NCBI GenBank assembly: GCA_963783335.1
Contig: CAWAND010000010.1
Coordinates: forward strand, 1,125,476-1,189,475
Direction of reading: 5' to 3'
From: an uncultured Chloroflexia bacterium
GTDB taxonomy: Bacteria > Chloroflexota > Anaerolineae > Anaerolineales > E44-bin32
Length of the DNA: 64,000 nt
A model generated the notes under the pieces. It saw only the letters and a program-made list of their open reading frames with translations. It was not told where the DNA came from and did not search any database. Of this stretch, positions 327 through 47,792 are shown one piece after another. Position 1 is the first letter of the stretch, and each line of letters opens with the position of its first letter. Position numbers and translations under genes: made by a program.

Positions 327-369
327 GCGGCGGGTTAAATGGGTAAGACGCCGCCGGCCGGGCAGCGAC

Positions 370-375
370 TATAAT
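370..375 (+). promoter_or_regulatory. -10 box TATAAT, 7 nt before ATG 383 (leaderless-type)
   Basis: gactTATAATggtccgcATG read directly. No SD between box and ATG. Confidence 0.4.
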
Positions 376-382
376 GGTCCGC

Positions 383-1051
383 ATGCTTCATTCGGACCGT
401 ATCGTGCGCGGCGTCAGACAGGGCGCCGGGATCATCCTGCTCTTCGGGGCCTGGCTGGCTTTACCCGCTTGGCTTGCACCGGCCGAGGCGGCCGATCCGG
501 GGCCTAGTGCTGGGCGCGGGGCAGACTACGTGTGCACCAGCCGTGTGCAGCTCCGATTTGGGGCGCTCTGTCCCGCCAATGGCCCAGCCAACGTGTTGGC
601 CGCCGATGCGCGCCAGGGTCAAGCACAGGCCATGCCGCTCCCCACGGTGAGCTTGGACCCCAATCTGGGCTTTCTGCCGTTCACCTACCTGCGCCTCAGC
701 AGCGACCATCCCACCCCAACCTACAGTTCGGAAAGCGATGCCCGGGATGGGAAGCACAGCAGCGGTCAGATCGAACCGGGCTTTGACTACATCTCCTACC
801 TCGACTGCAGCATCAAAAACGGCAAAGCGGTCTTTCTGCTGAGTTCGGGCGTGTACATGCGCGGCGGCAGTGACTGCGGACGGATTGCCACATCCGACTT
901 CCACGGCCTGGCGTTCTATCGGACCCCCGAACGACCATTTGGGTGGGTGCTTGGCGGGACATACACATCGCCTGCCCCGGGTGAGACGGAGACGCATACG
1001 CAGGATTGGGTCAACAAGTATCAGGTGATCCAGATCTATGACTTCAGCTGA
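383..1051 (+). CDS. secreted N-terminal part of an L,D-transpeptidase-like protein (probably one gene with 1038..1580, split by a frame disruption)
   Basis: Signal peptide (GAGIILLFGAWLALPAWLAPAEA/AD). Frame ends at TGA 1049-1051, while the next frame is open from 1029 and runs into the YkuD domain. Confidence 0.5.
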   Translation: MLHSDRIVRGVRQGAGIILLFGAWLALPAWLAPAEAADPGPSAGRGADYVCTSRVQLRFGALCPANGPANVLAADARQGQAQAMPLPTVSLDPNLGFLPFTYLRLSSDHPTPTYSSESDARDGKHSSGQIEPGFDYISYLDCSIKNGKAVFLLSSGVYMRGGSDCGRIATSDFHGLAFYRTPERPFGWVLGGTYTSPAPGETETHTQDWVNKYQVIQIYDFS

Positions 1052-31449: not shown

Positions 31450-33108
31450 CTAGTCCCCGAAGAGGGTGTCCTTTCCCTTTTGAGCGCGCGCCTTGAGTTC
31501 CTTGCCTTCCGCCAATCCGACCGCGGCGTAGAACGATTCATCGTAGTCGCGCGTACGAACGACGACCGGCATGGGAACAGCGTGCCCCAGGATGAGTGCT
31601 TGTTGGCGGGTATCCAGGCGGGCCAGCACCTCCTTGAGGGCGCCGGCCCCGCTCACCCCGGAGAACACCGCTCGGATGTCGGCCTCGTTATCGAGCAGGC
31701 AGGTGACGCGTGTGCCAATCTGGCTCATGACTTCGTCGTCGATGCCGCTTGGCCGCTGGTCGACGATCAGCAAGGTCACGTTGTACTTGCGCAGCTCGCG
31801 GGCGATGTTCCCAAAGATCGTGTGTCCGGCGATGGCCGGATCCAGAAATTTGTGTGCCTCTTCGATCACGATCGTCAGCGGGCGGGGTTCATCCGCCTGG
31901 GCGCCAGCGGCCATGTTCTTCTGATGGACATAGCGTTCGTGAATGCGCCGGGTGAGGTAGTTGGCTACCAGCACATACGACGCCAGCGTGTTGCCATAGG
32001 TGCCAAATTCCAGAACGACGCTGGTGCCCTTGCTCAAGCTGAGGAAGATCTCGTCGACGGCGTCGTCGCCTTGGCCTGGGACGATGAATCCCATGCGGCG
32101 GAAGAACTCGAACTTTCGCTGGATGGCGCCCAGCGTCCCGGCCACGATGCGTCCGCTGTCCAGCAAATCCGCAATCTCATCTGAGCCCTGTGCCTCATCC
32201 AGCAGCTTGGCGATCCAGTCCGGCCCCAGGTGACGCCGCAGGAAATAGAGCGCCCCGGTCTGGACGTCGCTCAGGCCGAGCAACCCGGAGAGCATTTCTA
32301 CATCCTCCGGCTCGATCTGCTGATAGCCGATCTTGAGCACGCGGTCGATCTTGCTTTTGCGGGCCCGGGAGGTGTCTTCGTCGAGAGTCACCACACGCAC
32401 GCGCCCGTCCGGGAACAATTGGCGGAGGCCTTTGTATTCCCGTCCGCTCTCGTCCTTGACCGCCCAGCCGTAGTCGTTGTGCATGTCGAAGATCAGCGTC
32501 GAGGCCAGCCCGGATTTGATGATCCCGGCCAGCAGGGTACGGGTGATAAAGGATTTGCCCGTACCGCTCTTGCCGAAGATGCCCGAAGAGCGTTCGACGA
32601 AGCGCGGCAGATCCAGGTTGACCTGCACCTGGTCCATTTCCAGTGGGGTCCCGAGAAAGAAATGTGTCTCGTCCTCCGGGCCGAACACCCGCTCCACGTC
32701 CTCGGCGGAGGCTTCATAGATGGCGGAGAAATGCCCGGGAATGGTCTTGACCGGTCGGGGAGTCTCATCGTCAGGATCGAGCATTAACATCGGGCTGACG
32801 TGAACCGTCCCATAAGCCACCTGGCCGCGATAGACCTCGGCTGTGAATTCGTCACCGAAATCGGGAGGATGATGGGCTAGCTCGGGGTTGGTTGAATCCA
32901 GGGCGATGTCCGTGATGATGCCAAAGAAGTGTCGGCCGGACTCCCGCCCCTGGGCGACCACATAACGGCCGACCGCCAGCTTCTCGAGTGTAAAACCGGG
33001 ATCGAGCCGGACGTTCAGGCCGCTGGAGAGCGACCCTCCGATAACTGACCCCAATGGTCGTTCGTGGCGTCTCGGGAAGATTTCGTCCAGGTTGGCAGCA
33101 TCTGTCAT
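31450..33108 (-). CDS. herA: HerA-like (DUF87/FtsK-HerA superfamily) hexameric ATPase
   Basis: N-terminal barrel-like segment, Walker A GKSGTGKS, Walker B LTIVIEEAHKF. A NurA-like gene lies upstream in the same operon. Confidence 0.75.
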   Translation of the reverse strand: MTDAANLDEIFPRRHERPLGSVIGGSLSSGLNVRLDPGFTLEKLAVGRYVVAQGRESGRHFFGIITDIALDSTNPELAHHPPDFGDEFTAEVYRGQVAYGTVHVSPMLMLDPDDETPRPVKTIPGHFSAIYEASAEDVERVFGPEDETHFFLGTPLEMDQVQVNLDLPRFVERSSGIFGKSGTGKSFITRTLLAGIIKSGLASTLIFDMHNDYGWAVKDESGREYKGLRQLFPDGRVRVVTLDEDTSRARKSKIDRVLKIGYQQIEPEDVEMLSGLLGLSDVQTGALYFLRRHLGPDWIAKLLDEAQGSDEIADLLDSGRIVAGTLGAIQRKFEFFRRMGFIVPGQGDDAVDEIFLSLSKGTSVVLEFGTYGNTLASYVLVANYLTRRIHERYVHQKNMAAGAQADEPRPLTIVIEEAHKFLDPAIAGHTIFGNIARELRKYNVTLLIVDQRPSGIDDEVMSQIGTRVTCLLDNEADIRAVFSGVSGAGALKEVLARLDTRQQALILGHAVPMPVVVRTRDYDESFYAAVGLAEGKELKARAQKGKDTLFGD

Positions 33109-33136
33109 GACATGAGCCTCATTGTGCTGTGATGGG

Positions 33137-33373
33137 TCAAGATGTCAGCAAGCGAAGCAGGTTTTGGAGCTGCGGCAGGTCGCCAGCCATCAAGCGGGCG
33201 CAGGCACGCCCAGCGTCGATCAAGAACGGCCGCCGTTCAGCTGCTGGTCTGGCTTCTGACGCAGTCTGCAGAGCGGCGGCCAACAGATGGTCAGCGGGAA
33301 GCTGAGGCGTGCTGAGAACCAGCGGTAGGAAATCAAAGGTGGTGGTGAAGGCTCGCACATCCTCCGGCGTCAT
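33137..33373 (-). CDS. hypothetical small helical protein (78 aa)
   Basis: ORF packed between the herA and nurA module genes with similar codon bias. No motif recognised. Confidence 0.4.
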   Translation of the reverse strand: MTPEDVRAFTTTFDFLPLVLSTPQLPADHLLAAALQTASEARPAAERRPFLIDAGRACARLMAGDLPQLQNLLRLLTS

Positions 33374-33393
33374 CCGATAGATCGGCGCCAGGG

Positions 33394-33753
33394 TCAGCGG
33401 AGGCTGGGGGGGAGGTGCTGGTGGAACGCCTCCCCAACCCGGTAGCCGACGGCCAGGGCGCTGAACTCCACCGGCACTTGGCGGTTGGCTTGTCCGTCGG
33501 CCAGCACTTCCGCCGGGGCCGTCTCAGTGGCTGCCATCTGCCGCGCGAATTCGTCGTCTTGAATGCTGATATCGTAGATCAAGCCGATGACCTGGCTTCC
33601 CCCTTGCTGGGCCTCGGCCAGGCAAAAACCGCCGAAAACGGGGATTTCCGGTTCCGGAAGGCGGATGGCGCCCACGAAACCGCGCGTGCTGCAGCGGGTG
33701 ACCCTTCCGATAAGCCCTTGCTTGTCCGTCATGTTTTGGCTCCGATAGTTCAC
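33394..33753 (-). CDS. hypothetical protein, possibly a stand-alone HAS-barrel-like domain
   Basis: GLIGRVTRCSTRGFVGAIRLPEPEIPVFGGFCLAEAQQGGSQVIGLIYDISI resembles the N-terminal barrel of HerA. GTGA overlap with the nurA stop. Alternative ATG at 33732 has a GGAG SD. Confidence 0.4.
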   Translation of the reverse strand: MNYRSQNMTDKQGLIGRVTRCSTRGFVGAIRLPEPEIPVFGGFCLAEAQQGGSQVIGLIYDISIQDDEFARQMAATETAPAEVLADGQANRQVPVEFSALAVGYRVGEAFHQHLPPSLR

Positions 33754-34934
33754 AGGCTGTGCCGGCGACGGGAAGTCAGCCAGGCCTTGGCGGTCTGCTT
33801 GTGTGATCGTTCCGGATGCAAACCGTGGGCGAGAAGACTCTCTTCGAAGAGGCCGGCCACGGTTTGGCGTTCTGCCTGGCTGACCACGGCCAATTCATGG
33901 GCCCGGGCCAGGACGTAGGGAAAGCCGGCCGTGGTGAGGCCCTGTTCGACCAGGCCGGAATGCACACGGGCCATCAACTCGGGCGAATTGGCGACCCAGC
34001 TGGGAATCTCGACTCGCATCGGATCCTTGACGCCAGGTGGGCGGTAGTAGAAGAAAGCCACTTCGTGACCGGCGGCCTTGAAATCCCGATTGATGGGGGA
34101 AGCGTAGATGAATGAGACGCTGCGATGGCCCTCTGGCAAGACCTGAGCGAATAGGCCGCGGTCGGTCAGGCCAAGGTAGGGCGTGGCCTGCAGCCGGTCG
34201 GTGCCGATCTTGTCCAAGGGGAGATCGAGCAGGTGGAGCAAGGCCAGGACGTTGGCGTGGCGGGGCCGATCGATCACCCCAGCCAACGCTGCTCCAGCTT
34301 GTCGGATGTTGTCCATGCCATGCAGGTAGTCCTTTAACAAGGCATCAGCCGACTTGCGCTGTTGGCCTTGGACTTGCAACGCCAACCACAGGATCAAGCC
34401 ATTGTCGAGAAGCGCCAGGCTGGCTTCTCCCTGGCAGCTGTTGGCCAGGCGGGCCAACTCGGCCATCTCGGCGATGTCGCGGCGGGCGCTCACGATCTCA
34501 GAGCCGATCAAGCCGCCGTCCTCAAGGTACAGCTCTTCCTTGCCTGAATACAGGCTGGGCGTGGAGCGAGCCGTGGGCGCTTGGCCTGATCCAGCAATGT
34601 AGTGCAGGCTGCCGATGTTGATCATGTAGTACATGGCAGCCGCGTGACGGTCCGGAGGAATTTGTGAGCCGTCTGCACCGAACACATGCAGCGGAGTTTG
34701 CAGGGCAGGTGGGGCGATGCTATTGGCCAAATCGTCGGTTGTTGGGATGGCTCCCGGCCAGCGATCTCCTGCCCGGGCCAGCTTGGCCTGCAGGGTCTCG
34801 GCATCGAGCCCCGACGCCGCCCGCAAGGCGTCCACGGCCTGGGGCAGTCGTTCGCCTAACGCCGCCATTTCTTGGGCGATTTTGGCGCCGGCACTCTGGA
34901 TTTGGGGTGCCAAACTTGGGAGATCAAGGGACAT
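33750..34934 (-). CDS. nurA: NurA-like 5'-3' nuclease
   Basis: VFGADGSQI (catalytic Asp context typical of NurA), size about 395 aa, and linkage to herA. AGGTG SD before ATG 34934. Confidence 0.6.
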   Translation of the reverse strand: MSLDLPSLAPQIQSAGAKIAQEMAALGERLPQAVDALRAASGLDAETLQAKLARAGDRWPGAIPTTDDLANSIAPPALQTPLHVFGADGSQIPPDRHAAAMYYMINIGSLHYIAGSGQAPTARSTPSLYSGKEELYLEDGGLIGSEIVSARRDIAEMAELARLANSCQGEASLALLDNGLILWLALQVQGQQRKSADALLKDYLHGMDNIRQAGAALAGVIDRPRHANVLALLHLLDLPLDKIGTDRLQATPYLGLTDRGLFAQVLPEGHRSVSFIYASPINRDFKAAGHEVAFFYYRPPGVKDPMRVEIPSWVANSPELMARVHSGLVEQGLTTAGFPYVLARAHELAVVSQAERQTVAGLFEESLLAHGLHPERSHKQTAKAWLTSRRRHSL

Positions 34935-34963
34935 GATGTGCACCTATCGAACACCTGTTCCGC

Positions 34964-34969: not shown

Positions 34970-35095
34970 TACGAGCCGGGATGCCTCGCAAGGGCGCTCT
35001 GTCGTGTGTCCTGGGCCAGGAGGACCCCCAACCGTCGGGTGGGCTTGGAGGTCTACCCCTACAGGTTCGGGTCTTTCGCCTAGATGACCGCCTTG

Positions 35096-35104
35096 TGCTA
35101 TACT
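35096..35104 (+). promoter_or_regulatory. extended -10 box TGCTATACT, 7 nt before ATG 35112 (leaderless-type)
   Basis: cttgTGCTATACTccgcgccATG read directly. Confidence 0.5.
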
Positions 35105-35111
35105 CCGCGCC

Positions 35112-35363
35112 ATGAAAGCCGACCGCCCTGTGCCTGACCGAGTCGTCGATTGGCTGCAGGCAAGCGGGCTGAGTGGCATCGCGGCCGCCATCGCCGAAGG
35201 CTTGGGGCCATTGGGCCCCTTGGCGGCACAACTGACTTACCTGGTTGCGCCGGTCTTGGACCGTCCCGGTGATGGACCCCTGAATGACCTGGCGGGTTGG
35301 CTGGAAGACCCTAGCCAGATCGATCAACTGGCCGAGCGGCTTCGAAGGGGAGGTACGCTTTGA
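35112..35363 (+). CDS. hypothetical small protein (83 aa), first gene of the cluster
   Basis: One hydrophobic segment. Its stop overlaps the next start by 4 nt. Confidence 0.5.
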   Translation: MKADRPVPDRVVDWLQASGLSGIAAAIAEGLGPLGPLAAQLTYLVAPVLDRPGDGPLNDLAGWLEDPSQIDQLAERLRRGGTL

Positions 35364-36109
35364 GCTCAACCGGCACGGTCGGTCTTGGGATCCTGCTTCT
35401 GTTCATCCTCCTGATGCTGGCCTTTGCCAGCTTGGGCCGGCGGTGGGAGTCCACCTTCCGCGAGCTTCCCGGTTTGGACGCGCTCGGGAACGCCATTGAA
35501 CGAGCGGTGGAATCCGGGAGGCGGGTGCACCTGTCTTTGGGCACCGGCTCCGTCTCAGGCACCGACAGCGCACCCGCGCTGGCCGGGCTGGCCTTACTCA
35601 AACGAATTGCTGCAATTACCTCCATGAGCGACAAACCCGTTGTGGCCACCACCGGTGACGGGGCGATGGCTCTCCTGGCTCAGGATAGCCTTCGCACTGC
35701 TTACAGTGACGTGGGGGCCAAGGATCGGTTTGAGTCCATCTCCGGACGGATGCTCGGACCGACACCCTATTCCTACGTGGCAACCATGCCGACGATGCTT
35801 GACACGGAAGACGTGTCAGTCCACCTAATGGTCGGCTCATTCGGCGCCGAATCCGGCCTTGCGGCCGATTTTGGAGACCGGCAGCACGCGATGGTGTTGG
35901 CGGGCACCGACGATGTTCAGTCCCAGGCGCTTCTCTACGCCACAGCCAAGAATCCGTTGGTGGGTGAAGAGGTGTTTGCTGTCGGGGCCTACTTGGACGT
36001 AAGTCCGCTCCACAAGGCGAGCCTCCGCACCCAGGATGTCGTCCGATACCTTGTCGTCGGTGCAATCCTGGTCGGCGCACTGCTGCACACGCTGGGAATC
36101 GGACTATGA
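35360..36109 (+). CDS. hypothetical bitopic membrane protein (249 aa)
   Basis: N- and C-terminal TM helices flank a soluble domain. Translationally coupled on both sides. Confidence 0.6.
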   Translation: MSSTGTVGLGILLLFILLMLAFASLGRRWESTFRELPGLDALGNAIERAVESGRRVHLSLGTGSVSGTDSAPALAGLALLKRIAAITSMSDKPVVATTGDGAMALLAQDSLRTAYSDVGAKDRFESISGRMLGPTPYSYVATMPTMLDTEDVSVHLMVGSFGAESGLAADFGDRQHAMVLAGTDDVQSQALLYATAKNPLVGEEVFAVGAYLDVSPLHKASLRTQDVVRYLVVGAILVGALLHTLGIGL

Positions 36110-36741
36110 AGCTCGGCGCCTACGTCATCTGGGCGGCAGTTGCTACGGCCACGGGCCTATTCGTCCTGCTGGGCTATTTCTTCCAACTCGACCTGCTTCT
36201 CGGGCTGCGCCTGCTGCTGATCCAATGGGCCGTCCTTCTCGCCGCGGGTGCGCTGTTCCTCGGCCTGTACAACTTGCTTTCTGTCCACTGGACCAAGGTC
36301 AGCCTGCAGGAAGGTGGTTGGCCCTACAGCGCGCTGCTGATTCTGATGTTCCTTGTCACCCTGGTGCTGGGATTGCTCTTTGGCCCTGACTATCAAGCGG
36401 TGATGCTTTTGTTCCGCTATGTCCAACTACCTGTCGAATCCAGCCTGTTGGCGCTGCTGGCGGTTTCGCTCACCCTGGCCGGGTTTCGTATGCTTTCACG
36501 CCGCCGTGACTTGGCCAGCCTGGTCTTCCTCGGCGCCGCCTTTCTGACTTTGCTCGGAACGGCGCCCTGGCCGGTAGGGGCGGATAGTTCGCTGGCGCTG
36601 CTGGTGGGTGACATGCGGGCATGGATGAGCCAAGTCGTCGCCGCCGGTGGGGCACGCGGCATTTTGCTCGGCGTCGCACTGGGCGCAATCACGACTGGAT
36701 TGCGGGTCCTGCTCGCATCCGACCGACCGTACGGGGACTAG
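36106..36741 (+). CDS. hypothetical polytopic membrane protein (211 aa)
   Basis: About 5-6 TM helices. 4-nt overlap upstream. Confidence 0.6.
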   Translation: MKLGAYVIWAAVATATGLFVLLGYFFQLDLLLGLRLLLIQWAVLLAAGALFLGLYNLLSVHWTKVSLQEGGWPYSALLILMFLVTLVLGLLFGPDYQAVMLLFRYVQLPVESSLLALLAVSLTLAGFRMLSRRRDLASLVFLGAAFLTLLGTAPWPVGADSSLALLVGDMRAWMSQVVAAGGARGILLGVALGAITTGLRVLLASDRPYGD

Positions 36742-36744
36742 TTG

Positions 36745-39156
36745 ATGGCCGAAATTCGCTGCCCAATGTGCAGCAAGCCCAACCCTGAAGACGCCGATAC
36801 TTGCTCCTTCTGCGGTGCACGGCTGAAGCCATTGGTGGCCGATTCGCCCGAGGAACCATCGCCAGTCGGCAGTCCACAAGAAGAGGGCCAGGGCGAGCCG
36901 GTCCCCGATTGGCTGGCGCGTGTCAGATCTAAGGCCGAAGCCGACCGCGGCGAGGATGACGAGGAGACCGACGTTCCGGAGTCGGCGGACGACGAAAGTG
37001 GATCTCCGGATTGGCTCGGACGGCTGCGTCAGGCTGAACCTCTCCAAGATGAAGGGCCACCCGAAGGGTATATTCCAGACTGGCTCGACGAATCTTCCGA
37101 AGACGCATCGGCCTCGCCCGAGACCGAGGTACCTCTCGAGCACGAAACCCCCGCCGAACACGAAGCGCAGGCCGGACCTCCCAGCCCCGACCGACCCGAG
37201 ACTGGCTGGTTGGATAGATTACGGGCAGAGTCGACTTCCGAGGTAACCTCCGAAGAATCCATCGACGAAGAGGACAGCTCCGCCCCCGAGCAGGAGCTCT
37301 TTGATCCGGGAGCGGGTGACGCCCTTGACTGGCTCGGAGACCTCGAAGAATCGGCTTCGGATGAGCCCGCGCCCGGCTCGGCGGCCGAAGGCGTTTCCCC
37401 TTGGGCCGATTATGAAACCCCGCCGGAGGCCGAAGGGGAGGTGTCCCTTGGGGGCGAGACACAGGCCGAAGCGCCGGATGATTGGCTGAGCGATCTAGGT
37501 GGTGAGGGCGGTGAGCCCGGCGGTCTGCCTGATTGGATCTCCGAGCTATCTGAACCCGGCGAAGGGGTGGGTGACGAGGCCGCGGCCAGTTTTGGGGGCG
37601 AAGACGAACTTCCCGCAAGCCCAGAATTCGAACCATCGCTTGGATCGGAGGAGTCCGGCCTGCCAGATCTCGAGGCCGAGCCTTTGGGGCCGCCAGGGGA
37701 GGATGCTGCTCCGTTGGAGCCAAGCGAGGTCATCGACGAGGGCCAGGCCGGGGACTTTGACTGGGATGAAGTCGAATTCGATTGGGACTCGGAAGAGATC
37801 CAGGACAAGCTCCCGGAGGAACCGTTGGAGGCTCCGGAACCCCCGGAGCCAGAGGCCGCCGAACTGCCGCACGTGCCCGCGCTGATCATGGGCGATGCGG
37901 ATGATGAGCCCAAGAGCGATGTACAGGATTTCGATCTCTCCACCGTAGAATTGCCGGATTGGCTGAGCGAGGTGCGCCCGGATGCAGGCGAGGGTGAAGC
38001 GGGGCGCGGCGATTTGGCACCAGCCACGATCCCAACTTGGCTCGAAGCCATGCGCCCGGTTGAAACCTTCCGGCCCGTGATCGATATCGAGCCCGAAGAG
38101 GAGCAGGCGGTCGAATCCGTCGGCCCGCTGGCGGGACTGCGCGGTGTCTTGTTGGCCGAACCCGTGGTGGCCAAGCCGCACACGGCCACGACCTCTGGCG
38201 CTCGCCTCGAAGTCACCGAACGTCAATTTGCTCAGGCTGAGCTGCTGCAGCGGATCGTGGAGCAAGAGGAGCATGAGATCCCGGCCACCGTCCAGGGAAA
38301 GCGAGCGTGGCCCGTGGCCCGCTGGCTGGTCAGCTTGATCATGCTGCTGGCAGTCCTGATTCCGGCGGTTGCCGGGGCGCCTGTGTTTCCCATCCCTCAG
38401 CGGGTTTCGCGTGATCTGGGCCCGCTGGTGGGAATCGTCAATACGCTGCCAACAGATCGCCCAATCCTGATGGTGTTCGACTTCGAACCTGGATACAGCG
38501 GCGAACTGGACGCTGTCGCCGAGCCGTTGATTGAAAGCCTGTTGGCGCGGGGGATCAACATCGTGACCGTGTCGACCCGGCCGACAGGGCCGCCGCTGGC
38601 CGTTGATTTGATTGACAAGATCGGAGCCCCTTATCAGATTGAGAACGGCCGCAACGTATTGCATCTGGGATATTTGTCCGGCGGACCGTCGGCCGTTCAG
38701 CTCTTTTCAGCTGCGCCCCGCGAAGCCATACTCAAGGGCTTTGAACTGCCTCCCGAAATGTCGGGGCAGTCGGCGTGGGCCTCCCCCTTGCTGAGCGATG
38801 TCCACAGCCTGTCGGACTTCGGCATGGTGGCCGTTGTGGCTGCCGGTACGGATACCGCCCGCACTTGGGCGGAGCAGGCGCATCCGTGGATGGGCGACAC
38901 GCCACTGGTGATGGTTTTGAGCCAGGGTGCGGAGCCGCTGATCCGTCCCTACTTCGAGTCGCTCACACCTCAGGTGAATGGCATCCTATCGGGTTTGCCC
39001 ACTGCGCTTGCCTATGAGCAACTCAACGGACGCCAAGGTATGGCCTTCAACCGCTGGAACGGGTTCGGGGCTGGGGCCTTCGCTGCCGAGTGGCTGATCC
39101 TGGCAGGAGCTGTCTACGGTGCGATTACCTGGTTCATGAGGAGACGCCGTGCCTGA
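36745..39156 (+). CDS. zinc-ribbon protein with a long acidic PDWL-repeat region and a C-terminal membrane-anchored domain
   Basis: CPMCSKPNPEDADTCSFCGARL zinc ribbon. About nine (P/L/G)(D/T)W(L/I) repeats in a D/E/P-rich region. TM helix, an approximately 270-aa domain, then a terminal TM helix. Confidence 0.7.
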   Translation: MAEIRCPMCSKPNPEDADTCSFCGARLKPLVADSPEEPSPVGSPQEEGQGEPVPDWLARVRSKAEADRGEDDEETDVPESADDESGSPDWLGRLRQAEPLQDEGPPEGYIPDWLDESSEDASASPETEVPLEHETPAEHEAQAGPPSPDRPETGWLDRLRAESTSEVTSEESIDEEDSSAPEQELFDPGAGDALDWLGDLEESASDEPAPGSAAEGVSPWADYETPPEAEGEVSLGGETQAEAPDDWLSDLGGEGGEPGGLPDWISELSEPGEGVGDEAAASFGGEDELPASPEFEPSLGSEESGLPDLEAEPLGPPGEDAAPLEPSEVIDEGQAGDFDWDEVEFDWDSEEIQDKLPEEPLEAPEPPEPEAAELPHVPALIMGDADDEPKSDVQDFDLSTVELPDWLSEVRPDAGEGEAGRGDLAPATIPTWLEAMRPVETFRPVIDIEPEEEQAVESVGPLAGLRGVLLAEPVVAKPHTATTSGARLEVTERQFAQAELLQRIVEQEEHEIPATVQGKRAWPVARWLVSLIMLLAVLIPAVAGAPVFPIPQRVSRDLGPLVGIVNTLPTDRPILMVFDFEPGYSGELDAVAEPLIESLLARGINIVTVSTRPTGPPLAVDLIDKIGAPYQIENGRNVLHLGYLSGGPSAVQLFSAAPREAILKGFELPPEMSGQSAWASPLLSDVHSLSDFGMVAVVAAGTDTARTWAEQAHPWMGDTPLVMVLSQGAEPLIRPYFESLTPQVNGILSGLPTALAYEQLNGRQGMAFNRWNGFGAGAFAAEWLILAGAVYGAITWFMRRRRA

Positions 39157-39850
39157 GCTCTCGGCCGATCTTTTCGGGGGCCTGCTGGCCTGGGTGCTGA
39201 CCCTGATGGTGCTCAGCTTTCTCATTCGGGACAACCCGCTTTTTCGGGTTGCGACCTACCTGTTTGTCGGTGTTGCTTCAGGATACGCCGGCGCCATCGC
39301 CTGGCACAATGTTCTCGAGCCTGCCCTCATTGACCCCGTGATCACTCGCGGCCCAGGGGCGCTGTTGGACGTAACCCTGATTGTTCCCTGGGTGCTGCTT
39401 CTGCTGCTGTTGTTCAAACTCTCACCGGCGACTTCTCGGTTGGGCAGTGTGTCCACTGCGCTGCTGGTGGGCGTGGGTGCCGGCGTTGTGGTCGGAGGAG
39501 CAATTACCGGAACCTTGATCCCCCAGTCGGTCGCAGCCATGGCCACCTTGAGCCCCGCGGCAGTAACGCCGACCACAGGCGAGACCGGACTCGAGCGCAG
39601 TTTCAGCGTCTTGGTACTGCTGGTCGGCACCGTCAGCACGCTGGTCTACTTCCAATTCACTGCCCGAAAGACGGCGACAGGTGAAGCGCAGCGGGCCGCC
39701 GTGGTCAATATCGTGGCTTGGGTGGGCCGACTTTTCATCGCCGTGACCTTTGGCGTAATGTACGCTGGGGTCTTGATGGCCACGTTGGTTATTCTGTCGG
39801 AAAGGATCCAGTTCTTGGTAGCCTTTGTTGCCCGATTCTTCACAGGCTGA
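39149..39850 (+). CDS. hypothetical polytopic membrane protein (233 aa)
   Basis: About 6 TM helices. 8-nt overlap upstream. Confidence 0.6.
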   Translation: MPELSADLFGGLLAWVLTLMVLSFLIRDNPLFRVATYLFVGVASGYAGAIAWHNVLEPALIDPVITRGPGALLDVTLIVPWVLLLLLLFKLSPATSRLGSVSTALLVGVGAGVVVGGAITGTLIPQSVAAMATLSPAAVTPTTGETGLERSFSVLVLLVGTVSTLVYFQFTARKTATGEAQRAAVVNIVAWVGRLFIAVTFGVMYAGVLMATLVILSERIQFLVAFVARFFTG

Positions 39851-39859
39851 GCGAGGTCT

Positions 39860-41620
39860 ATGAGCGCCAACATCGAGCCCGATACCCTGCTCGCGATCGA
39901 CGTCGGCAGCGTGCACACCCGTGCCAGTCTGTTCGATGTGGTGGAAGGCCGCTATCGTCTTGTGGCCTCTGGCAGGGCACTGTCGACCGCCGGCCCGCCA
40001 TTGTTTGACGTGCGGGAAGGTGTCCGCATCGCGCTCGATCAACTGCAAGCTGTCACGGGCAGGAAGATGATCGATGACACCGAGACGCTCATCATGCCGG
40101 TCACAGGGGGCGGGATGGGGGTGGACATCTGCGTGGCGACCGGATCGGCCGGCCCCACCCTGAAGGCCGTGCTGGTCGGCCTGATGGATGACATTTCGCT
40201 CGAGAGCGGCCGCCGGTTGGCCGAATCAACCTACCTGACGCTGATCGAAGAAATCGGCCTTACCGACCGCCGTGGGGAGGACGAGAAACTGGACTCGATC
40301 CTCAGGGCGAAGCCAGACGTGTTGTTGGTGGTCGGCGGAACGGACGGCGGCGCGGCAGCCTCTGTTCTTTCGATGGTCGATCTGGTCAGCCTTTCGACGG
40401 GATTGATGCCGGACGGCAACCGGCCGCACGTCGTGTTTGCTGGGAACCGGGCGCTGGCGGCTCACGTGGCCGAACGTTTTACCGAAGCCACACCGGTCGC
40501 ATTGACGGCCAATATTCGTCCCGATCTGGAACAAGAAGATTTGGCGCCGGCTCGTACCAGGCTGGCCGAGGTCTTGTCTGAGTCCCGGGCGAGCAAAGTG
40601 GCCGGGTATGACGAACTGGTGCAATGGAGCGGCGGCCACATGATGCAGACGGCCGACGCCTTTGGCCGGGTGATTCGCTATCTAAGCCAGGTCTATGACC
40701 CCGCCAAGGGTGTGTTGGGGATCGACCTGGGAGGCAGCCATACCACGCTGGCGGCTGGCTTTTCAGGTGACCTGAGGCTGAGTGTCCGCTCGGATATGGG
40801 CCTGGGAGAGTCTCTTCCTGGTCTCATTCAGCACACAAAATTGGAGAGTATCAGCCGCTGGCTGCCAGAGGAGATCTCCGACGCCGACATTCTGAATTAT
40901 GTCCACAACAAGGCCAACTATCCGGCGACCATCCCGGCCGAGAAGGATGAACTCTATCTTGAATTCGCCCTTGCCAGAGAGATTATGCGCAGTTCGCTCA
41001 AGCTGGCCCGCAGGGGCTGGCCGAGGAAAGGCAAACTACGAGATTCGATCTTGCTGCCGCCGATGGAGCCCATTTTGGCCGCCGGAGGGATCCTGGCTCG
41101 CGCGCCGCATCCTGGCTATGCCGCTCTGGCTATCCTGGATGCCTTTCAACCCGTGGGGATCACAACCCTTGTCCTGGACCCTCATGGTCTGACGCCTGCT
41201 CTAGGAGTCGCCGCCGGACCGGCGCCAATGGTGAGTGTGCAGGTGTTGAACAGCGGCAATTATGTCAGCTTGGGGACGGTTGTCTCCCCCGTGGGTGGTG
41301 GAAAGTTGGGCCGCCCGGCCCTGCGAGTGCGGTTGGATAAAGAAAGTGAAGGTGAGGGCATGGAAGGGGAGGTCCGCGCCGGCCAGCTGGTCATCCTGCC
41401 GCTTGGACTGGGTGAAACCGGCCGCTTGACGCTGCGTCCCGAAAAGGGCTTCGACGTCGGCTTCGGCGGGCCCGGCAAAGCTGGTGCGCTGCGTGTGTCA
41501 GGCGGAATTCTTGGGTTGATTATCGACGCACGCGGGCGGCCGTTGCCTTTGCCGCTGGATCCCGAGGCACGGCGCGAGTTGGCCAGCAAGTGGCTCTGGG
41601 ATATCGGGGTGCGAGAATGA
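39860..41620 (+). CDS. GlmL/MutL-family actin-fold (ASKHA) ATPase-like protein
   Basis: LLAIDVGSVHTRASLFD (phosphate-1 motif), LLVVGGTDGG, and GIDLGGSHTT (second actin-fold lobe). Confidence 0.65.
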   Translation: MSANIEPDTLLAIDVGSVHTRASLFDVVEGRYRLVASGRALSTAGPPLFDVREGVRIALDQLQAVTGRKMIDDTETLIMPVTGGGMGVDICVATGSAGPTLKAVLVGLMDDISLESGRRLAESTYLTLIEEIGLTDRRGEDEKLDSILRAKPDVLLVVGGTDGGAAASVLSMVDLVSLSTGLMPDGNRPHVVFAGNRALAAHVAERFTEATPVALTANIRPDLEQEDLAPARTRLAEVLSESRASKVAGYDELVQWSGGHMMQTADAFGRVIRYLSQVYDPAKGVLGIDLGGSHTTLAAGFSGDLRLSVRSDMGLGESLPGLIQHTKLESISRWLPEEISDADILNYVHNKANYPATIPAEKDELYLEFALAREIMRSSLKLARRGWPRKGKLRDSILLPPMEPILAAGGILARAPHPGYAALAILDAFQPVGITTLVLDPHGLTPALGVAAGPAPMVSVQVLNSGNYVSLGTVVSPVGGGKLGRPALRVRLDKESEGEGMEGEVRAGQLVILPLGLGETGRLTLRPEKGFDVGFGGPGKAGALRVSGGILGLIIDARGRPLPLPLDPEARRELASKWLWDIGVRE

Positions 41621-41661
41621 CGCATTTGGCATCGTTCTTGCATCATTGGGCCTGAGGCTAT

Positions 41662-42729
41662 ATGGCGATTACATATCTTCCCCCTGTGCGGCACGTCCTG
41701 CCGCTAACCACGGTACGCCGAACGCGGGAACTTCCCGCAGCCGGCGCGGTCACGGTGCGCGTCAACGAAAAGGTCCAGGCCCAAGACGTTCTGGGTGAGG
41801 CCGAGGTGGCCCCCAGGCACTTCTTCCTGGATTTGGCTCGTGGCCTGGGTGTGTCCGAACTTCAGGTTCAGAAGTATCTGGTTAAACAAGCGGGAGACCT
41901 GGTGAACGCCGACGAGATCATCGCTGGCCCTGCCGGCGTGGCCAGGCGCACTGTCCGTGCGCCTTCGGATGGCCGGATCATCAGCTTCACTGGCGGCAAG
42001 GTCCTGTTCCAATCACGCGGCCGGATGGTCGAAGTCAAGGCCGGATTCCCGGGCTTGGTCATTGCCACCGACGGTGTGCAGCGGATCACACTCGAGACCA
42101 CGGGTGCCCTTATTCAGGGCGTTTGGGGGAACGGTAAGCAGGACTATGGCCTGATGCGCATGGTGGGCGATGGCCCTCGAAGCCGTCTACAGACGCGATT
42201 GATGGACATTCAACTGCGCGGAGCCGTGATTGTTGCTGGCCAGTGCGACCACCCGGCACCTCTCCATCAAGCCGGAGAGCTGTCCCTGCGAGGCCTTATC
42301 TTGGGGGGCATGGCTGCCGCTTTGATCCCCATGGCACGGCGCCTTCCTTACCCGATTGTCGTCCTGGGCGGCTTTGGGGATTTCCCCATTAGCGCGCCGA
42401 TCTTCAACCTGCTGGCGAGCAACGCCGGCCGTGAAGTTGCCGTTGAAGGAAGAACGCCTTCATCGTATGAGATCTATCGGCCGGAAGTCATTATTCCGCT
42501 CCCATCGGATCGGAGCGTTGATTTGCCAGAAGACGTGATCCCGCTTGGCCCAGGTGTGCGCGTGCGTATCTTACGAGCTCCCTTGCAAGGGGTTGTCGGC
42601 GAAGTGCGCGAAATCTTGCCCAGAGCCGAAGAAATGCCTAGCGGAATGCTCGCCCGAAGTGCCGTCGTGTCGATTGAGGGATCGGCACCAGCCAGGGTCC
42701 CCCTGGCAAACCTGGAAGTGTTGGGCTAA
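41662..42729 (+). CDS. hypothetical protein (355 aa) with barrel-sandwich-like N-terminal part and KOW-like C-terminus
   Basis: The ORF is intact. Fold assignment rests on weak pattern resemblance only. Confidence 0.45.
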   Translation: MAITYLPPVRHVLPLTTVRRTRELPAAGAVTVRVNEKVQAQDVLGEAEVAPRHFFLDLARGLGVSELQVQKYLVKQAGDLVNADEIIAGPAGVARRTVRAPSDGRIISFTGGKVLFQSRGRMVEVKAGFPGLVIATDGVQRITLETTGALIQGVWGNGKQDYGLMRMVGDGPRSRLQTRLMDIQLRGAVIVAGQCDHPAPLHQAGELSLRGLILGGMAAALIPMARRLPYPIVVLGGFGDFPISAPIFNLLASNAGREVAVEGRTPSSYEIYRPEVIIPLPSDRSVDLPEDVIPLGPGVRVRILRAPLQGVVGEVREILPRAEEMPSGMLARSAVVSIEGSAPARVPLANLEVLG

Positions 42730-42784
42730 ACAGCAGCGTCGCCCGGAGAATTGACATCCGGCTGAAGCGCGAGGAGAGAAGACC

Positions 42785-43330
42785 ATGGCAGAAGATTTCG
42801 AAGTCGGTGGCCCCCTGCCCGAGGAATCATCCAATCGGACGTTTCTGATCGCAGCAGCCGGAATCGGCGGCCTGCTCGTCCTGAGCATGATCTGTCTGGG
42901 GGTGTATGCGCTTGTCCTGGCGCCGCGTCAGCAGCAGGCGCGGGTGGAGCAGGCGACCCAAATCGTGCTCCAGAACACGCAGGTGGCCCAGTCTCTAACG
43001 CAGACTGCCGCCGCCGGCCGGGCAACCCAAACCCCCACGCCGTCGGAGACACCCGTGCCAAACACGCCCACGGCGACCGCCACGCAGGTGGTGGTCATTC
43101 CGACCGACACACCCTTCACGACATTTGGCACCTCCGCGCCGCTGACGTCGACCGCCGCCGCACAGCAAACTCTTGACGCAGCGCAGCAGACGACCCCGAC
43201 GGCGACGCCGACCGCTTTGCCCGCCACGGGTTTTGCCGACGAGGCCGGATTGCCCACATTGTTCCTGCTCGCCCTTGGCCTGCTGGCAGTCGTTATCGTC
43301 GCTCGAGGCATACGAACCAGAACGTCCTGA
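42785..43330 (+). CDS. Thr/Pro/Ala-rich surface protein with N-terminal TM helix and C-terminal LPXTG-like sorting signal
   Basis: LPATG at 43217-43231, followed by the hydrophobic stretch LPTLFLLALGLLAVVIVA and a basic tail RGIRTRTS. Confidence 0.6.
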   Translation: MAEDFEVGGPLPEESSNRTFLIAAAGIGGLLVLSMICLGVYALVLAPRQQQARVEQATQIVLQNTQVAQSLTQTAAAGRATQTPTPSETPVPNTPTATATQVVVIPTDTPFTTFGTSAPLTSTAAAQQTLDAAQQTTPTATPTALPATGFADEAGLPTLFLLALGLLAVVIVARGIRTRTS

Positions 43331-43378
43331 ATTCGATCTTCTCGCGCGATCCGCACAGGACCTTTACCGCAGGGCCAG

Positions 43379-44794
43379 ATGGTTTTGGCCCTGCGGTTGC
43401 CTTGTGGGATAATGGCGCCGCACCGGTTGGCTTTGTTCCCAAAGGATGATCCATTGGCTCCCAAATCTGCTTCTCAGGCCTGGGCAGAGCTCCCCTTCCC
43501 CAATTTGGCGCGCCAGGTGCTTGAAGACCTGGCGGCGGGCCGTTGTGCGGCCGTAGTGGGGCTCAGCAACACCGGCAAGTCGACTTTTATGCGCGGCCTG
43601 GCCACGGCACCTGCTCAATCTGCGTACGAAACGGTGCGCGGGCGGCCGGGCCGTCTGCTGTACGTGGACTGCAATCGGGCCGTGGCCATTTCGGTGCAGG
43701 CCTTCTATGAGGTGGTGTTGCGATCGTTGTTGGAAGCGCTGGTGGAGGATGCCTCACCGGAGCTGTACGATCGGCTGCGGGCCTACCATGCTTCGATCAC
43801 GGAAGCCGGGAATGAGTTTGGCGCTTCCCTCTCCTTCAACCTCGCGTTGAGCGACTTGTGTCAGGAACTTGGGAGCGATCTCTGTTTGCTGGTAGATGAA
43901 TTTGATGAGATCTACACTGCCCTGGAAGACCGGGCGCTTCTAAATATGCGCGCCTTGCGGGATCGATTCCCCGACCGGCTGTTGTTTGTCACGGCGACCG
44001 TGCGGCGGCTGCCGGGACTGAGGGGGCGGGTGGTGGAGGATGAGTTTGCCGAGATGTTCTCCCAGTCAACGCATGTGCTGCCCGGCCTGACAAGGGATGA
44101 TGTCGATCCGATCCTGGCCGCCATGGGCATCGAACTCACCGGCTCTCAACCCGAAATCTCCTACGAACTCTCTGGGGGTCATCCCGGCCTCCTGATCGCC
44201 GTGGCGCAGGCACTGTCTGGGACGGACACCGAAGATCTACAAATGGGGTTGACCCTCGTCAGCCGTGAGCCGCAGCCCCGGGCGGAGTGCCTGAAGATTT
44301 GGAATCAACTTAGTGAAGAAGAGCGCGGTTGGCTGGCGACGTTGGTCACGCAGGCCGAGAGCCGGCTCCCAGCACCGCAAATGGGTCAGCTTGAGAGCCT
44401 AGGTCTGGTGCACAAGGGAGAAGTCTTCTCGCCCGTGCTGGCAGGCTTTGTGGGACGGCGATCCCGCGCACCCGGTGTCGGAGATCAGGGGATCCACCTT
44501 GATCCGGATTCGGGCGATGTGTGGGTGGACGGTGTGCGGATTCCGGTGCTCACCGACCTTGAATACCGGCTGATGGCTCTGCTGGATGAGCGACGAGACA
44601 AGGTCACAGACAAATACAAGATCGTGACCACGGTTTGGGGAGAGGACTACTTGGGGGACGTCGACGATGCACGCGTCGAAAAACTTGTCAGCCGGTTGAG
44701 GGGAAAGATAGAAAGCGATCCGTCGAATCCGCGCTATTTGGTGACCCTGAGAGGGCGGGGTTACAAACTCCTGACCCGACCCAAGAAGGGCTGA
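43379..44794 (+). CDS. P-loop ATPase (AAA/STAND-like) fused to a C-terminal OmpR/PhoB-type winged-helix DNA-binding domain
   Basis: Walker A GLSNTGKST, Walker B LCLLVDEFDE, and C-terminal LTDLEYRLMALL...LVTLRGRGYKL. Start ambiguous (43379 or 43412). Confidence 0.7.
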   Translation: MVLALRLPCGIMAPHRLALFPKDDPLAPKSASQAWAELPFPNLARQVLEDLAAGRCAAVVGLSNTGKSTFMRGLATAPAQSAYETVRGRPGRLLYVDCNRAVAISVQAFYEVVLRSLLEALVEDASPELYDRLRAYHASITEAGNEFGASLSFNLALSDLCQELGSDLCLLVDEFDEIYTALEDRALLNMRALRDRFPDRLLFVTATVRRLPGLRGRVVEDEFAEMFSQSTHVLPGLTRDDVDPILAAMGIELTGSQPEISYELSGGHPGLLIAVAQALSGTDTEDLQMGLTLVSREPQPRAECLKIWNQLSEEERGWLATLVTQAESRLPAPQMGQLESLGLVHKGEVFSPVLAGFVGRRSRAPGVGDQGIHLDPDSGDVWVDGVRIPVLTDLEYRLMALLDERRDKVTDKYKIVTTVWGEDYLGDVDDARVEKLVSRLRGKIESDPSNPRYLVTLRGRGYKLLTRPKKG

Positions 44795-44799
44795 AGATT

Positions 44800-46254
44800 C
44801 TAAGAGGAGGCGATGGCAGCGCCGTACGCCATCAGCGCCTCCGTGCGCTCGGGTTGGAGCGCCTCAGCGTAGATCCGCAGGACGGGCTCCGTGCCGGAGG
44901 GACGGATCAGAAGCCACGAGTCATCATCCAGGATGTACTTAACCCCATCGCTGTTCTCGACCATGGCAACTTTGATCCCGTCAATGGTCGCCGGAGCGTC
45001 CTGTGTCAATCTGGCGACCATCTTCGATTTGATGATGGGATGGGACAGACGTTGGTCGAGGCGAGCGTAGTGCGACGGGCCCACCTCCTCTAGGAGCTCG
45101 GCCACCAACTGGTCCAAGCTCTTGCCCGTCTTGGCGACCATCTCAAGCACCAGCAGCCCCATCAATACGCCATCCCCTTCGGGGATATGGCCCTGGAACG
45201 ACATGCCTCCAGATTCTTCGCCACCGATCAGCACATCACCCCGCAGCATGTGGTCGGCGATATGGTTGAACCCCACCGGTGTCTCAATCACCTCCAGCCC
45301 GTAGCGCTCGGCCAGCCGATTGACCATGCGTGTCGTGGACACGGTCTTGACGATCTTGCCGCTCAGCCCACGCGTTTCAACCAGGTACTTGACCGAAAGG
45401 GCCATAATCCGGTGGGGGTCCACAAATTGGCCCCGGCCGTCCATCGCCCCGATCCGATCTGCATCGCCGTCGGTGGCCACGCCCAACTGCCCATGGCCAG
45501 CTGCGATGGCGCCCGCCAGCGCCCCCAGATATTGGGCAATCGGTTCAGGATGGATGCCGCCAAAACCGGGATTCATCTCGCCGCGCACTTCAAACACTTC
45601 GCAGCCGGTACCCTGAAGGATGCCCTTGATTTGGCCGCGCCCAGAGCCGAACATCGAGTCGACCACCAGATGCTGCGGGTTCTCGGCGATGGCCTCAAAG
45701 TCGATCAAGCTGCGAAGGTGGGCGTAGTAATCGGGCGTGGGGTTGAAGCGCTGGATGAGGCCGGCTTCCTTTGCCCGATCGTAGTCCATCAAGTTGGGGC
45801 CGCGCCCGCGCAATTCGTTATCGTTGAGGTAGACCTCGACCCGGCGGCATTGTTCAGGTGAGGCGGCGCCGCCGTAGGCGATCTTCAGCTTGACGCCGTT
45901 GTAGCGGGGCGCGTTGTGAGAGGCGGTGATCATGATCCCGGCCACCGCATTAAGGTGTCGCACCGCGTGGCTGATGGCGGGAGTCGGCGCATCGGCGGTG
46001 GTCAAATGGACCGTGTAACCGTTGGCCGCCAGCACGCGGGCTGCTTCCACAGCGTAGCGATCGGACAGGAAACGCGTGTCAAACCCAACCACCATGCATT
46101 TCGGGTCGGGTTCGGCCAAGTCGCCGGCGCCGTTAAGCCACTCTTCCGCCGCGACCGCGTCGGCGATGGCCTGGGTCACCAGACGCAAGTTGTGGAAGGT
46201 GAATGTGTCGGAGATAACGCCTCGCCAGCCATCAGTGCCAAAGTGGATTGTCAT
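44800..46254 (-). CDS. alpha-D-phosphohexomutase (phosphoglucomutase/phosphomannomutase family)
   Basis: Phosphoserine loop TASHNAPRYNG, metal loop GVATDGDADR, and sugar loop GGEESGG. Confidence 0.88.
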   Translation of the reverse strand: MTIHFGTDGWRGVISDTFTFHNLRLVTQAIADAVAAEEWLNGAGDLAEPDPKCMVVGFDTRFLSDRYAVEAARVLAANGYTVHLTTADAPTPAISHAVRHLNAVAGIMITASHNAPRYNGVKLKIAYGGAASPEQCRRVEVYLNDNELRGRGPNLMDYDRAKEAGLIQRFNPTPDYYAHLRSLIDFEAIAENPQHLVVDSMFGSGRGQIKGILQGTGCEVFEVRGEMNPGFGGIHPEPIAQYLGALAGAIAAGHGQLGVATDGDADRIGAMDGRGQFVDPHRIMALSVKYLVETRGLSGKIVKTVSTTRMVNRLAERYGLEVIETPVGFNHIADHMLRGDVLIGGEESGGMSFQGHIPEGDGVLMGLLVLEMVAKTGKSLDQLVAELLEEVGPSHYARLDQRLSHPIIKSKMVARLTQDAPATIDGIKVAMVENSDGVKYILDDDSWLLIRPSGTEPVLRIYAEALQPERTEALMAYGAAIASS

Positions 46255-47743: not shown

Positions 47744-47752
47744 ATTATAGCA
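47744..47752 (-). promoter_or_regulatory. extended -10 box TGCTATAAT, 8 nt before ATG 47735 (leaderless-type)
   Basis: Reverse complement of attatagca. Confidence 0.5.
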
Positions 47753-47774
47753 TCCGAGGCGGGCCAGCTCGCTG

Positions 47775-47783
47775 TGCTAAAAT
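47775..47783 (+). promoter_or_regulatory. extended -10 box TGCTAAAAT, 9 nt before the uvrC ATG 47793
   Basis: gcTGTGCTAAAATgccgaggctATG read directly. Confidence 0.45.
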
Positions 47784-47792
47784 GCCGAGGCT

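Follow-up and report, generated by a model that had tools for sequence, protein, structure and literature searches.

Membrane-tethered ATPases of the FtsA and PilM type are among the closest described parallels to the gene cluster reported here: a cytoplasmic ATPase of the ASKHA class (actin/Hsp70 fold) is encoded together with membrane proteins, both bitopic and polytopic. ATPases of this kind dock on short peptides of their partners: PilM on the N-terminal tail of PilN, and FtsA, which is homologous to actin, on the C-terminal peptide of FtsZ (PMC5832921). The cluster lies in a 64-kb stretch of DNA (the window) from an uncultured Chloroflexia bacterium (contig CAWAND010000010.1), where the gene of an ASKHA ATPase (g6) is surrounded by genes for integral membrane proteins. 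Eight genes, g1 to g8, form one invariant, translationally coupled block, and they may well encode the subunits of a single chromosomal, housekeeping-type cell-envelope complex conserved across the class Anaerolineae (Chloroflexota). The candidate counterparts of the FtsZ and PilN peptides would be ELPDWLxxLR motifs in the membrane protein g4 and the N-terminal tail of g8. In sequence g6 belongs to neither the FtsA nor the PilM family and matches only MutL models; docking at these sites is a prediction.

A second parallel is GltJ of the Myxococcus Agl-Glt focal adhesions. The disordered linker of GltJ holds a short motif for which the N-terminal Zn ribbon of the same protein and a cytosolic partner compete, which creates a switch (PMC11135422). 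A Zn ribbon, a disordered linker with motifs, a transmembrane (TM) segment, an outer domain and a conserved operon with membrane proteins are common to GltJ and g4. The differences are that g4 has no GYF domain, repeats its motif (median of nine), has no Agl/Glt or MglAB partners and is not matched by the NCBIfam GltJ model.

Individual products also have described relatives. The GlmL/MutL accessory proteins (PF13941, TIGR01319) share with g6 the ASKHA fold class, a family-model match and the nucleotide-binding motifs, but g6 scores below the cut-offs, carries an extra invariant C-terminal domain of about 120 amino acids (aa) and never adjoins mutase subunits, being always embedded among membrane-protein genes. 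With the sortase-anchored LPXTG proteins of monoderm bacteria g8 has in common a tripartite signal conserved in its orthologues; it differs in having no folded passenger, in an N-terminal TM anchor in place of the typical cleavable signal peptide, in an extra conserved GFADExGLP box and in having no sortase gene nearby. The pair MamJ-MamK likewise consists of an acidic, motif-repetitive protein and an actin-fold ATPase encoded together, MamJ linking membrane organelles to the actin-like filament; no homology between the two cases is known, g4 is integral to the membrane in its own right, and the context is unrelated.

A preliminary description of this DNA had delimited a cluster of nine to ten tightly coupled, co-directional genes. 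Open reading frame (ORF) calling and translation of the window recovered the nine listed ORFs (g1 to g9, 35112-44794) at the coordinates given there, all on the + strand and closely packed. The co-localised unit was upheld; its size was not, since the conserved unit comprises eight genes only, g1 to g8 (35112-43330).

Conservation was analysed in 81 loci: one metagenome contig and 80 genome loci, the latter being the best 80 of more than 574 stretches encoding a g6 relative that were found when each GTDB species was scanned through a single genome. These best 80 all came from metagenome-assembled genomes of Anaerolineae/Chloroflexota, one of them labelled Anaerolinea thermophila. Identity of the g6 orthologues to the window copy ranged from 40 to 62%. 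The genes g1 to g8 were collinear and in identical order in 81/81 loci, and the metagenome contig (ATPase 60% identical to g6) carried all eight in this order but lacked g9. Counts by phmmer were 81 for g6, 80 each for g5, g7 and g8, 79 for g4, 71 for g3, 70 for g2 and 50 for g1, and each miss could be traced to the contig breaking off or to fragmentation of the assembly. Both flanks of the block turned over among the loci, while its order and presence stayed invariant. The arrangement goes far beyond what chance would give: the order is identical throughout, and no gene is missing where the contig extends far enough.

Three distant metagenome relatives, with an ATPase only 31-36% identical, again showed the cluster DUF6754-...-MutL-~355 aa-~200 aa. 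Scattered homologues, which the preliminary description had considered as evidence against a functional unit, were thus not found by gene-neighbourhood analysis: g1 to g8 were co-localised in the 81 loci and again in these relatives. An exhaustive HMMER search found 609 representative clusters of g6 relatives at E<1e-30, nearly all of about 575-600 aa.

The junctions in the window are tight. The g1/g2 (35360/35363) and g2/g3 (36106/36109) pairs overlap by 4 nt and the g4/g5 pair by 8 nt. A gap of 3 nt separates g3 from g4 when the latter starts at ATG 36745, as in its orthologues ('MAEIRCPMC'); the longest g4 ORF begins at TTG 36742. The gaps g5/g6, g6/g7, g7/g8 and g8/g9 measure 9, 41, 55 and 48 nt, and g6, g7 and g8 each have a GAGG-type ribosome-binding site 5' of the start codon.

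A leaderless-type promoter had been proposed for the operon, and comparison of the upstream regions bore this out. The 9-mer TGCTATACT is unique in the window on both strands. It was found at the equivalent position in 66 of the 68 loci having enough upstream sequence, the remaining two carrying TGTTATACT and TGGTATACT there, and only one occurrence was found elsewhere in 1.49 Mb of locus DNA. The distance from the -10 box to the start codon was 6-9 nt in 53/75 cases. No -35 box was conserved, no Shine-Dalgarno sequence precedes g1 in the window, and no RNA leader or riboswitch was matched in Rfam. With TATACT lying 7 nt from the ATG and no Shine-Dalgarno sequence, the g1 transcript is predicted to be leaderless. 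These comparisons strongly support a conserved leaderless operon behind TGCTATACT: the operon-specific extended -10 element is predicted to set a leaderless or near-leaderless start, with the mRNA beginning on or right beside the first codon of g1, and the box is kept in genomes with protein identities as low as 40%. The features of the locus are listed in Table 1.

Table 1. Features of the g1-g8 operon and its surroundings (nucleotide positions in the window unless aa is given).
Feature	Position	Strand	Description
Extended -10 promoter element TGTGCTATACT	35094..35104	+	end of TATACT 7 nt upstream of the g1 ATG
g1	35112..35363	+	83 aa; conserved, moderately hydrophobic core (GPL..LGAQ..Y..P)
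g2	35360..36109	+	TM 7-25, domain of ~200 aa, TM 231-249
g3	36106..36741	+	211 aa, polytopic, ~6 TM
g4	36745..39156	+	Zn ribbon, acidic arm, TM1, Rossmann-like ectodomain, TM2, RRRRA tail
g4 Zn ribbon	aa 7-29	+	Pfam Zn_Ribbon_1, 6e-05, 23.1 bits, slightly under the 25-bit gathering cut-off
g4 acidic disordered arm	aa ~36-520	+	acidic region with 28% D+E; 9 PDWL-type motifs
g4 TM1	aa 528-546	+	hydropathy
g4 Rossmann-like ectodomain	aa ~559-764	+	AlphaFold model
g4 TM2	aa ~767-803	+	followed by the RRRRA tail
g5	39149..39850	+	233 aa, polytopic, ~6 TM
g6	39860..41620	+	586-aa ASKHA (actin/Hsp70-fold) ATPase, MutL/GlmL Pfam family
g6 family-specific C-terminal domain	aa 465-586, nt 41252-41617	+	~120 aa, beta-rich
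g7	41662..42729	+	355-aa soluble, beta-rich multidomain protein
g8	42785..43330	+	181-aa stalk: N-tail, TM 20-38, Thr/Pro/Ala-rich linker, LPXTG-type signal
g8 LPATG	43217-43231	+	window copy ending LPATG...LFLLALGLLAVVIVARGIRTRTS; hydrophobic stretch, basic tail RTRTS
g9	43379..44794	+	471-aa STAND-type P-loop nucleoside triphosphatase fused to an OmpR/PhoB-type winged helix
PGM/PMM/GlmM-superfamily sugar-phosphate mutase	44800..46254	-	four PGM_PMM Pfam domains; convergent with the operon
nurA, 119-aa ORF, herA	31450-34943	-	divergent from the operon

The composition of the cluster had been described as envelope-associated, and the family assignments agree with this: beside the cytoplasmic ATPase of the ASKHA class, several products are integral to the membrane and one is an LPXTG protein. 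Hydropathy analysis gave two TM helices each for g2, g4 and g8 and about six each for g3 and g5, in total about 17 across these five proteins. From operon structure and co-conservation, the eight products probably act together at the envelope.

The link to the wall would be g8. Its conserved N-tail, PEESxNRTF, is predicted to be cytoplasmic, and at the C-terminus the order LPxTG-GFADExGLP-hydrophobic-RRLR is conserved. The protein thus carries the LPXTG, the hydrophobic segment and the positively charged tail of a sorting signal, and the pattern is present in 69/81 orthologues. The sorting signal had been recognised before; the N-terminal TM anchor is an addition to that picture. As it keeps this anchor, g8 would bridge membrane and wall, and we consider it somewhat favoured by these features that the complex is wall-anchored. 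In one divergent locus (L083) the stalk protein is 349 aa long with a long acidic N-terminal tail, and the ATPase is 744 aa long with an acidic/basic tail.

Of the membrane proteins, g2 scored above the gathering score of Pfam DUF6754 (PF20539; 4e-35, 121.6 bits against 27), a family matched by 25/25 g2 orthologues. Its invariant acidic and polar residues include E51, D91, D109, E164, E203, D226 and R229. It had been described as bitopic, which its two TM helices contradict. In g3, E111 and R184 are invariant and the C-terminal D206-R207-P208-Y209 (DRPY) is nearly so; Pfam gave nothing consistent for 28 orthologues. In g5 the motifs GDNPLFR and GTLxPQ are conserved, and no Pfam match was obtained for 27 orthologues. 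The small g1 product, whose orthologue lies directly upstream of g2 in 50/81 loci, had no match in Pfam or NCBIfam. A W-L motif occurs at its N-terminus in 20/51 orthologues; the idea that this motif is common to the g1 N-terminus and the g6 C-terminus was set aside as weakly supported, since the g6 'KWLWDIG' may belong to the fold. Paralogy inside the operon (g2 against the C-terminal part of g4, g3 against g5, the g6 C-terminal domain against the others) was also rejected: BLASTP and hhalign on 50-80-member profiles of the eight families returned only TM-helix signal.

The two polytopic proteins raise the question of transport. In such a reading g3 and g5 would be the conduit of an apparatus exporting wall or sheath polysaccharide, or g8, with g2 and g4 as accessory proteins and g6 gating or energising the passage. 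The invariant charged or polar residues in these proteins of about six TM helices (E111 and R184 in g3; D28-N29 and P125 in g5) are consistent with it, as is the convergent PGM/PMM-like neighbour, which could supply sugar-1-phosphate precursors, and halves of GT-B glycosyltransferases are among the top Foldseek matches of the g4 ectodomain. However, about 28 orthologues each of g3 and g5 were screened and none matched a transporter family of Pfam or NCBIfam. The GT-B matches, at E>1e-3 and TM about 0.3, are weak and concern a domain predicted to be extracellular, where nucleotide sugars are absent, and the PGM gene runs in the other direction. No ASKHA-energised transporter is known. A transport function is therefore unlikely, yet it is the best of the alternatives to the envelope complex proposed here.

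A relationship with RNF/NQR-like complexes was rejected: PF02508 was absent from 28 g3 and 27 g5 orthologues, and g7 shares only the N-terminal barrel-sandwich domain of RnfC. The single PF02508 match fell on a predicted 388-aa protein of a 2.3-kb ENA contig (P0399), in which an RnfA/RnfE-like N-terminal half is followed by the ectodomain and TM2 of g4; it is probably an assembly chimera, although it could be a real fusion.

The g4 protein would be the scaffold of the proposed complex. The CxxC...CxxC ribbon is kept in all complete orthologues and is followed by an acidic arm of 188-808 residues. Throughout this arm a short motif recurs, with the consensus E-E-[LIV]-P-D-W-L-x-x-[LM]-R (704 W-[LIVMF] motifs in 72 orthologues). 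Each g4 protein has a median of 9 motifs, with a range of 2-21 under a stricter pattern, and 93% of the arm Trp residues in the 72 orthologues fall within the motif. The preliminary description had called g4 a zinc-ribbon, acidic-repeat membrane protein. The zinc-ribbon, acidic and membrane parts stood; the repeat did not, as no DNA tandem repeats were found in g4, and what recurs is a dispersed short linear motif.

The AlphaFold model of g4 aa 515-804 (pLDDT 88.9, pTM 0.83) showed a TM helix, a six-stranded Rossmann-like domain and a long TM helix. Because g4 has no signal peptide in front of its Zn ribbon and long acidic arm, this domain between the two TM helices must, on the predicted topology, face outwards. 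In the divergent L083 orthologue (L083:1857-5663, 1269 aa) a Thr/Pro linker of about 220 aa and three SH3b domains (SH3_3, 1e-24) are inserted between the Rossmann-like ectodomain and TM2. SH3b domains are typical wall-binding modules.

In some lineages an IPADWL/IPAEWI motif is present on an added tail of the ATPase g6, which suggests that the receptor of the ELPDWL motif may be a core component. The motif ELPDWLxxLR may resemble the FtsZ tail (D-I-P-x-F-L-R).

The layout of g4 would also suit a surface-motility or adhesion complex like the Agl-Glt focal adhesions, with g4 as a GltJ-like recruiter: the cytosolic N-terminal Zn ribbon, the disordered linker with motifs, the TM segment and the outer domain follow each other as in GltJ, a Ras/MglA-like GTPase adjoins the cluster in one locus (L001), and g8 gave a weak NCBIfam GltJ match (E 0.007). 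That match, however, reached 15.4 bits against a cut-off of 450 and lies in a low-complexity region. Neither a GYF domain in g4 nor an Agl motor or other Glt proteins were found, the GTPase neighbour is not conserved among the loci, and a covalently wall-anchored stalk would be ill-suited to a travelling complex. Cultured Anaerolineae are described as non-motile. We regard this explanation as improbable.

Two soluble proteins, g7 and g6, could be recruited to the scaffold of the envelope complex. Orthologues of g7 are 54-94% identical, a conservation on par with that of g6. Its AlphaFold model (pLDDT 81.8) is a chain of beta-rich domains: an N-terminal barrel-sandwich hybrid (Foldseek matches to NusG domain II, RNA polymerase beta' SBHM and the RnfC N-terminus), a central alpha/beta swivel-like domain (UPF0107 AF_0055, TMt 0.64) and a C-terminal SH3/KOW-like barrel (Spt5 KOW, TMt 0.75-0.81). 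PF13375 RnfC_N is carried by a few g7 homologues.

The ATPase g6 matched Pfam MutL (PF13941) over aa 11-464 (6.5e-61, 206.9 bits), where the model ends. Against the NCBIfam GlmL equivalog NF040745 it scored 93.8 bits (cut-off 475) and against the family TIGR01319 66.1 bits (cut-off 204). The models of FtsA, MreB, PilM and ParM did not match g6; MutL was its only Pfam match at E<=0.1, and NCBIfam gave no match to such proteins. The nucleotide-binding motifs are invariant or nearly so (D14/G16/T20, GGTDGG around 159-164 with G159-G160..G164, G291 and G409), and g6 is predicted to be an active ATPase with these motifs intact. Its most invariant residues are located in the C-terminal domain (G552, D556, R558, R560 and P561 in GLIIDARGRP, and W578), which lies beyond the 450-459 positions covered by the GlmL family models; by orthologue comparison this last segment is the best conserved of the protein.

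These features bear on a different identity for g6, namely a GlmL-type reactivase or chaperone for a coenzyme-B12-dependent or other radical enzyme, the neighbours being unrelated or a membrane-bound variant of the enzyme. The MutL match, the matches to GlmL-family models in NCBIfam and the NCBI name 'glutamate mutase L' speak for it, but both NCBIfam scores (94 against 475 and 66 against 204 bits) fall far below the cut-offs, the invariant C-terminal domain is extra, and linkage to the membrane proteins is strict. No glmS/glmE, aminomutase, B12-binding or mutase genes were found in the window cluster or among the conserved neighbours of the 81 loci. The explanation is largely refuted and very improbable. 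With scores below the cut-offs, an additional C-terminal domain and no mutase context, g6 is by all sequence indications a branch of the GlmL superfamily and not a true GlmL. NCBI annotates products of the cluster as 'DUF6754 domain-containing protein', 'glutamate mutase L' and 'hypothetical protein' (MGA9190458.1, MGA9190462.1, MGA9190463.1); judged by these comparisons, the public name of g6 is a misnomer.

That g1 to g8 are simply unrelated housekeeping genes kept adjacent by synteny inertia is just as improbable: each product is individually uncharacterised and the grouping comes from sequence comparison, but order and presence are invariant while the flanks turn over, the genes are joined by stop-start overlaps behind a single operon-specific promoter, and selfish modules inserted into the block have not broken it up.

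For the envelope complex encoded by g1 to g8 we propose the following mechanism. As their anatomy suggests, g2, g3, g4, g5 and g8 would form a membrane platform, fixed outside to the peptidoglycan by a sortase that joins g8 covalently to the wall while the N-terminal TM helix stays in the membrane. The Rossmann-like ectodomain of g4 would be exposed toward the wall, extended by the three SH3b domains in one divergent lineage. Inside, g4 would project its Zn ribbon and its acidic disordered arm, on which the ELPDWL motifs could serve as multivalent docking sites. The docked soluble module might be g6 (via its C-terminal domain), the SH3-like domain of g7, or both, and the Zn ribbon may compete for the motifs, by analogy with the ZnR-linker switch of GltJ. 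Such motif-mediated recruitment of g6/g7 is possible rather than probable. ATP binding and hydrolysis by g6 would then drive platform assembly or conformational cycles, for which the membrane-tethered actin-fold ATPases FtsA and PilM and the Hsp70-like reactivases are precedents. The most likely role would be wall- or septum-related morphogenesis, or envelope maintenance, in thin multicellular filaments; a morphogenetic role as such we consider doubtful. Taken as a whole, the picture of a class-wide Anaerolineae envelope machine, in which a GlmL-family ATPase and g7 work on an ELPDWL scaffold and the platform is tied by sortase to peptidoglycan as a new morphogenetic or cytoskeleton-like system, is put forward tentatively.

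Several points weigh against this proposal. We infer one complex from operon structure and co-conservation. The weakest step is morphogenesis, which rests on taxonomic distribution and wall anchoring only. No sortase gene was found in the window (no TLxTC-containing ORF) or in the flanks of the 81 loci, and 12/81 g8 orthologues fail the LPxTG pattern, nine of them with variant pentapeptides (LPTGG, MPxTG) and three cut by contig ends. The partners of the ELPDWL motif, g6 and g7, are candidates, and the characterised relatives of g6 are all soluble accessory proteins of B12-dependent mutases, not components of membrane machines. The topology of g2 is ambiguous as to the membrane side of its domain of about 200 aa. 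Beyond DUF6754, g2, g3 and g5 gave no match, and g2 has no sequence relative in PDB. Foldseek matches of the g4 ectodomain were generic doubly-wound folds only (GT-B halves, transhydrogenase dIII, RCK; E>1e-3), and those of the g7 model are domain-level only. Because the matches of g4 and g7 are of this kind and g2, g3 and g5 have none, no enzymatic or transport activity can be named.

No characterised pathway had been recognised in the preliminary description, and this held in searches of Pfam, NCBIfam, PADLOC, PDB profiles, Foldseek (with two AlphaFold models) and the literature. Profile searches of g2, g6 and g7 against PDB gave nothing meaningful. The literature searched held no mention of DUF6754 or PF13941, nor of Anaerolineae linked to such a cluster, and nothing relevant was found on 'glutamate mutase L' or on Anaerolineae with actin-like proteins or sortase. 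In the libraries and literature searched, no described type of system corresponds to the cluster, and on that basis we regard it as new as a system.

Anaerolineae are abundant filamentous bacteria of sediments, digesters and activated sludge, and their cell biology is almost uncharted. An operon kept intact throughout the class behind an invariant promoter of the leaderless type very likely matters to the cell, and of its eight products seven have no characterised relative and the eighth is publicly misnamed. If the proposed complex exists, it would give the GlmL branch of the actin/Hsp70 superfamily its first role in a membrane machine, define a new multivalent short linear motif (ELPDWLxxLR) in bacteria and open an entry point to the coupling of cytoplasm, membrane and wall in monoderm Chloroflexota. 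At minimum, an annotation is corrected and DUF6754 is given a fixed genomic context.

Only about 10 relatives, the closest ones, have the gene g9 behind g8; about 85% of the loci lack it, and there the PGM-like gene comes directly after g8. Its description as a P-loop ATPase fused to a winged-helix domain agrees with its Pfam matches (Trans_reg_C, 1.3e-16; AAA_16; nSTAND1); its description as a dedicated regulator of the cluster does not survive this lineage-specific distribution. A promoter-like site (TTGGCC-17-GATAAT with an upstream TG; 43385-43413, + strand) falls within the opening codons of g9 as annotated, which suggests that g9 may be transcribed from a promoter of its own and that its start codon may lie downstream of 43379. 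PADLOC gave a weak mad8 match on g9 (E 0.00079, 17 bits).

Clustering of all flanking ORFs identified the convergent mutase of the PGM/PMM/GlmM superfamily as the sole widely conserved flanking gene; it was found in 47-53 of the 81 loci, at a median of 125 bp after g8. Its best NCBIfam match was Arch_GlmM (297 bits, cut-off 439), and it scored below every NCBIfam equivalog cut-off.

On the other side, the divergence of the operon from nurA-herA was confirmed in the window, where NurA and HerA were identified by family scan; the adjacency is lineage-specific and occurs in only 10/81 loci, the closest relatives. HerA scored far under the NCBIfam cut-offs of repair and anti-phage subfamilies alike. 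A further ORF of 78 aa (33137-33373) lies between the 119-aa ORF and herA. A defence system or island beside NurA-HerA was rejected: PADLOC matched neither g1 to g8 nor NurA, and the neighbourhood is confined to these 10 close relatives. A mobile element was rejected as well, with no plasmid or phage matches and a uniform GC content in the window (0.595-0.645).

Additional genes were found inside or beside the block in single loci. Two of these cases are selfish modules: a DUF3800-like ORF of 257 aa is inserted between g6 and g7 at L040:7308-8081, and an antitoxin and PIN-domain toxin pair between g5 and g6 at L050:6562-7282; the operon is undisrupted in both. At L001:13587-14840 (- strand) a Ras/Arf/MglA-like small GTPase gene and an uncharacterised 248-aa gene directly follow g8, a pairing not conserved in other loci. 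Further downstream in the window, two long ORFs overlap antisense, one of 533 aa on the - strand (47745-49346), without a Pfam match, and one of 620 aa on the + strand (47793-49655).

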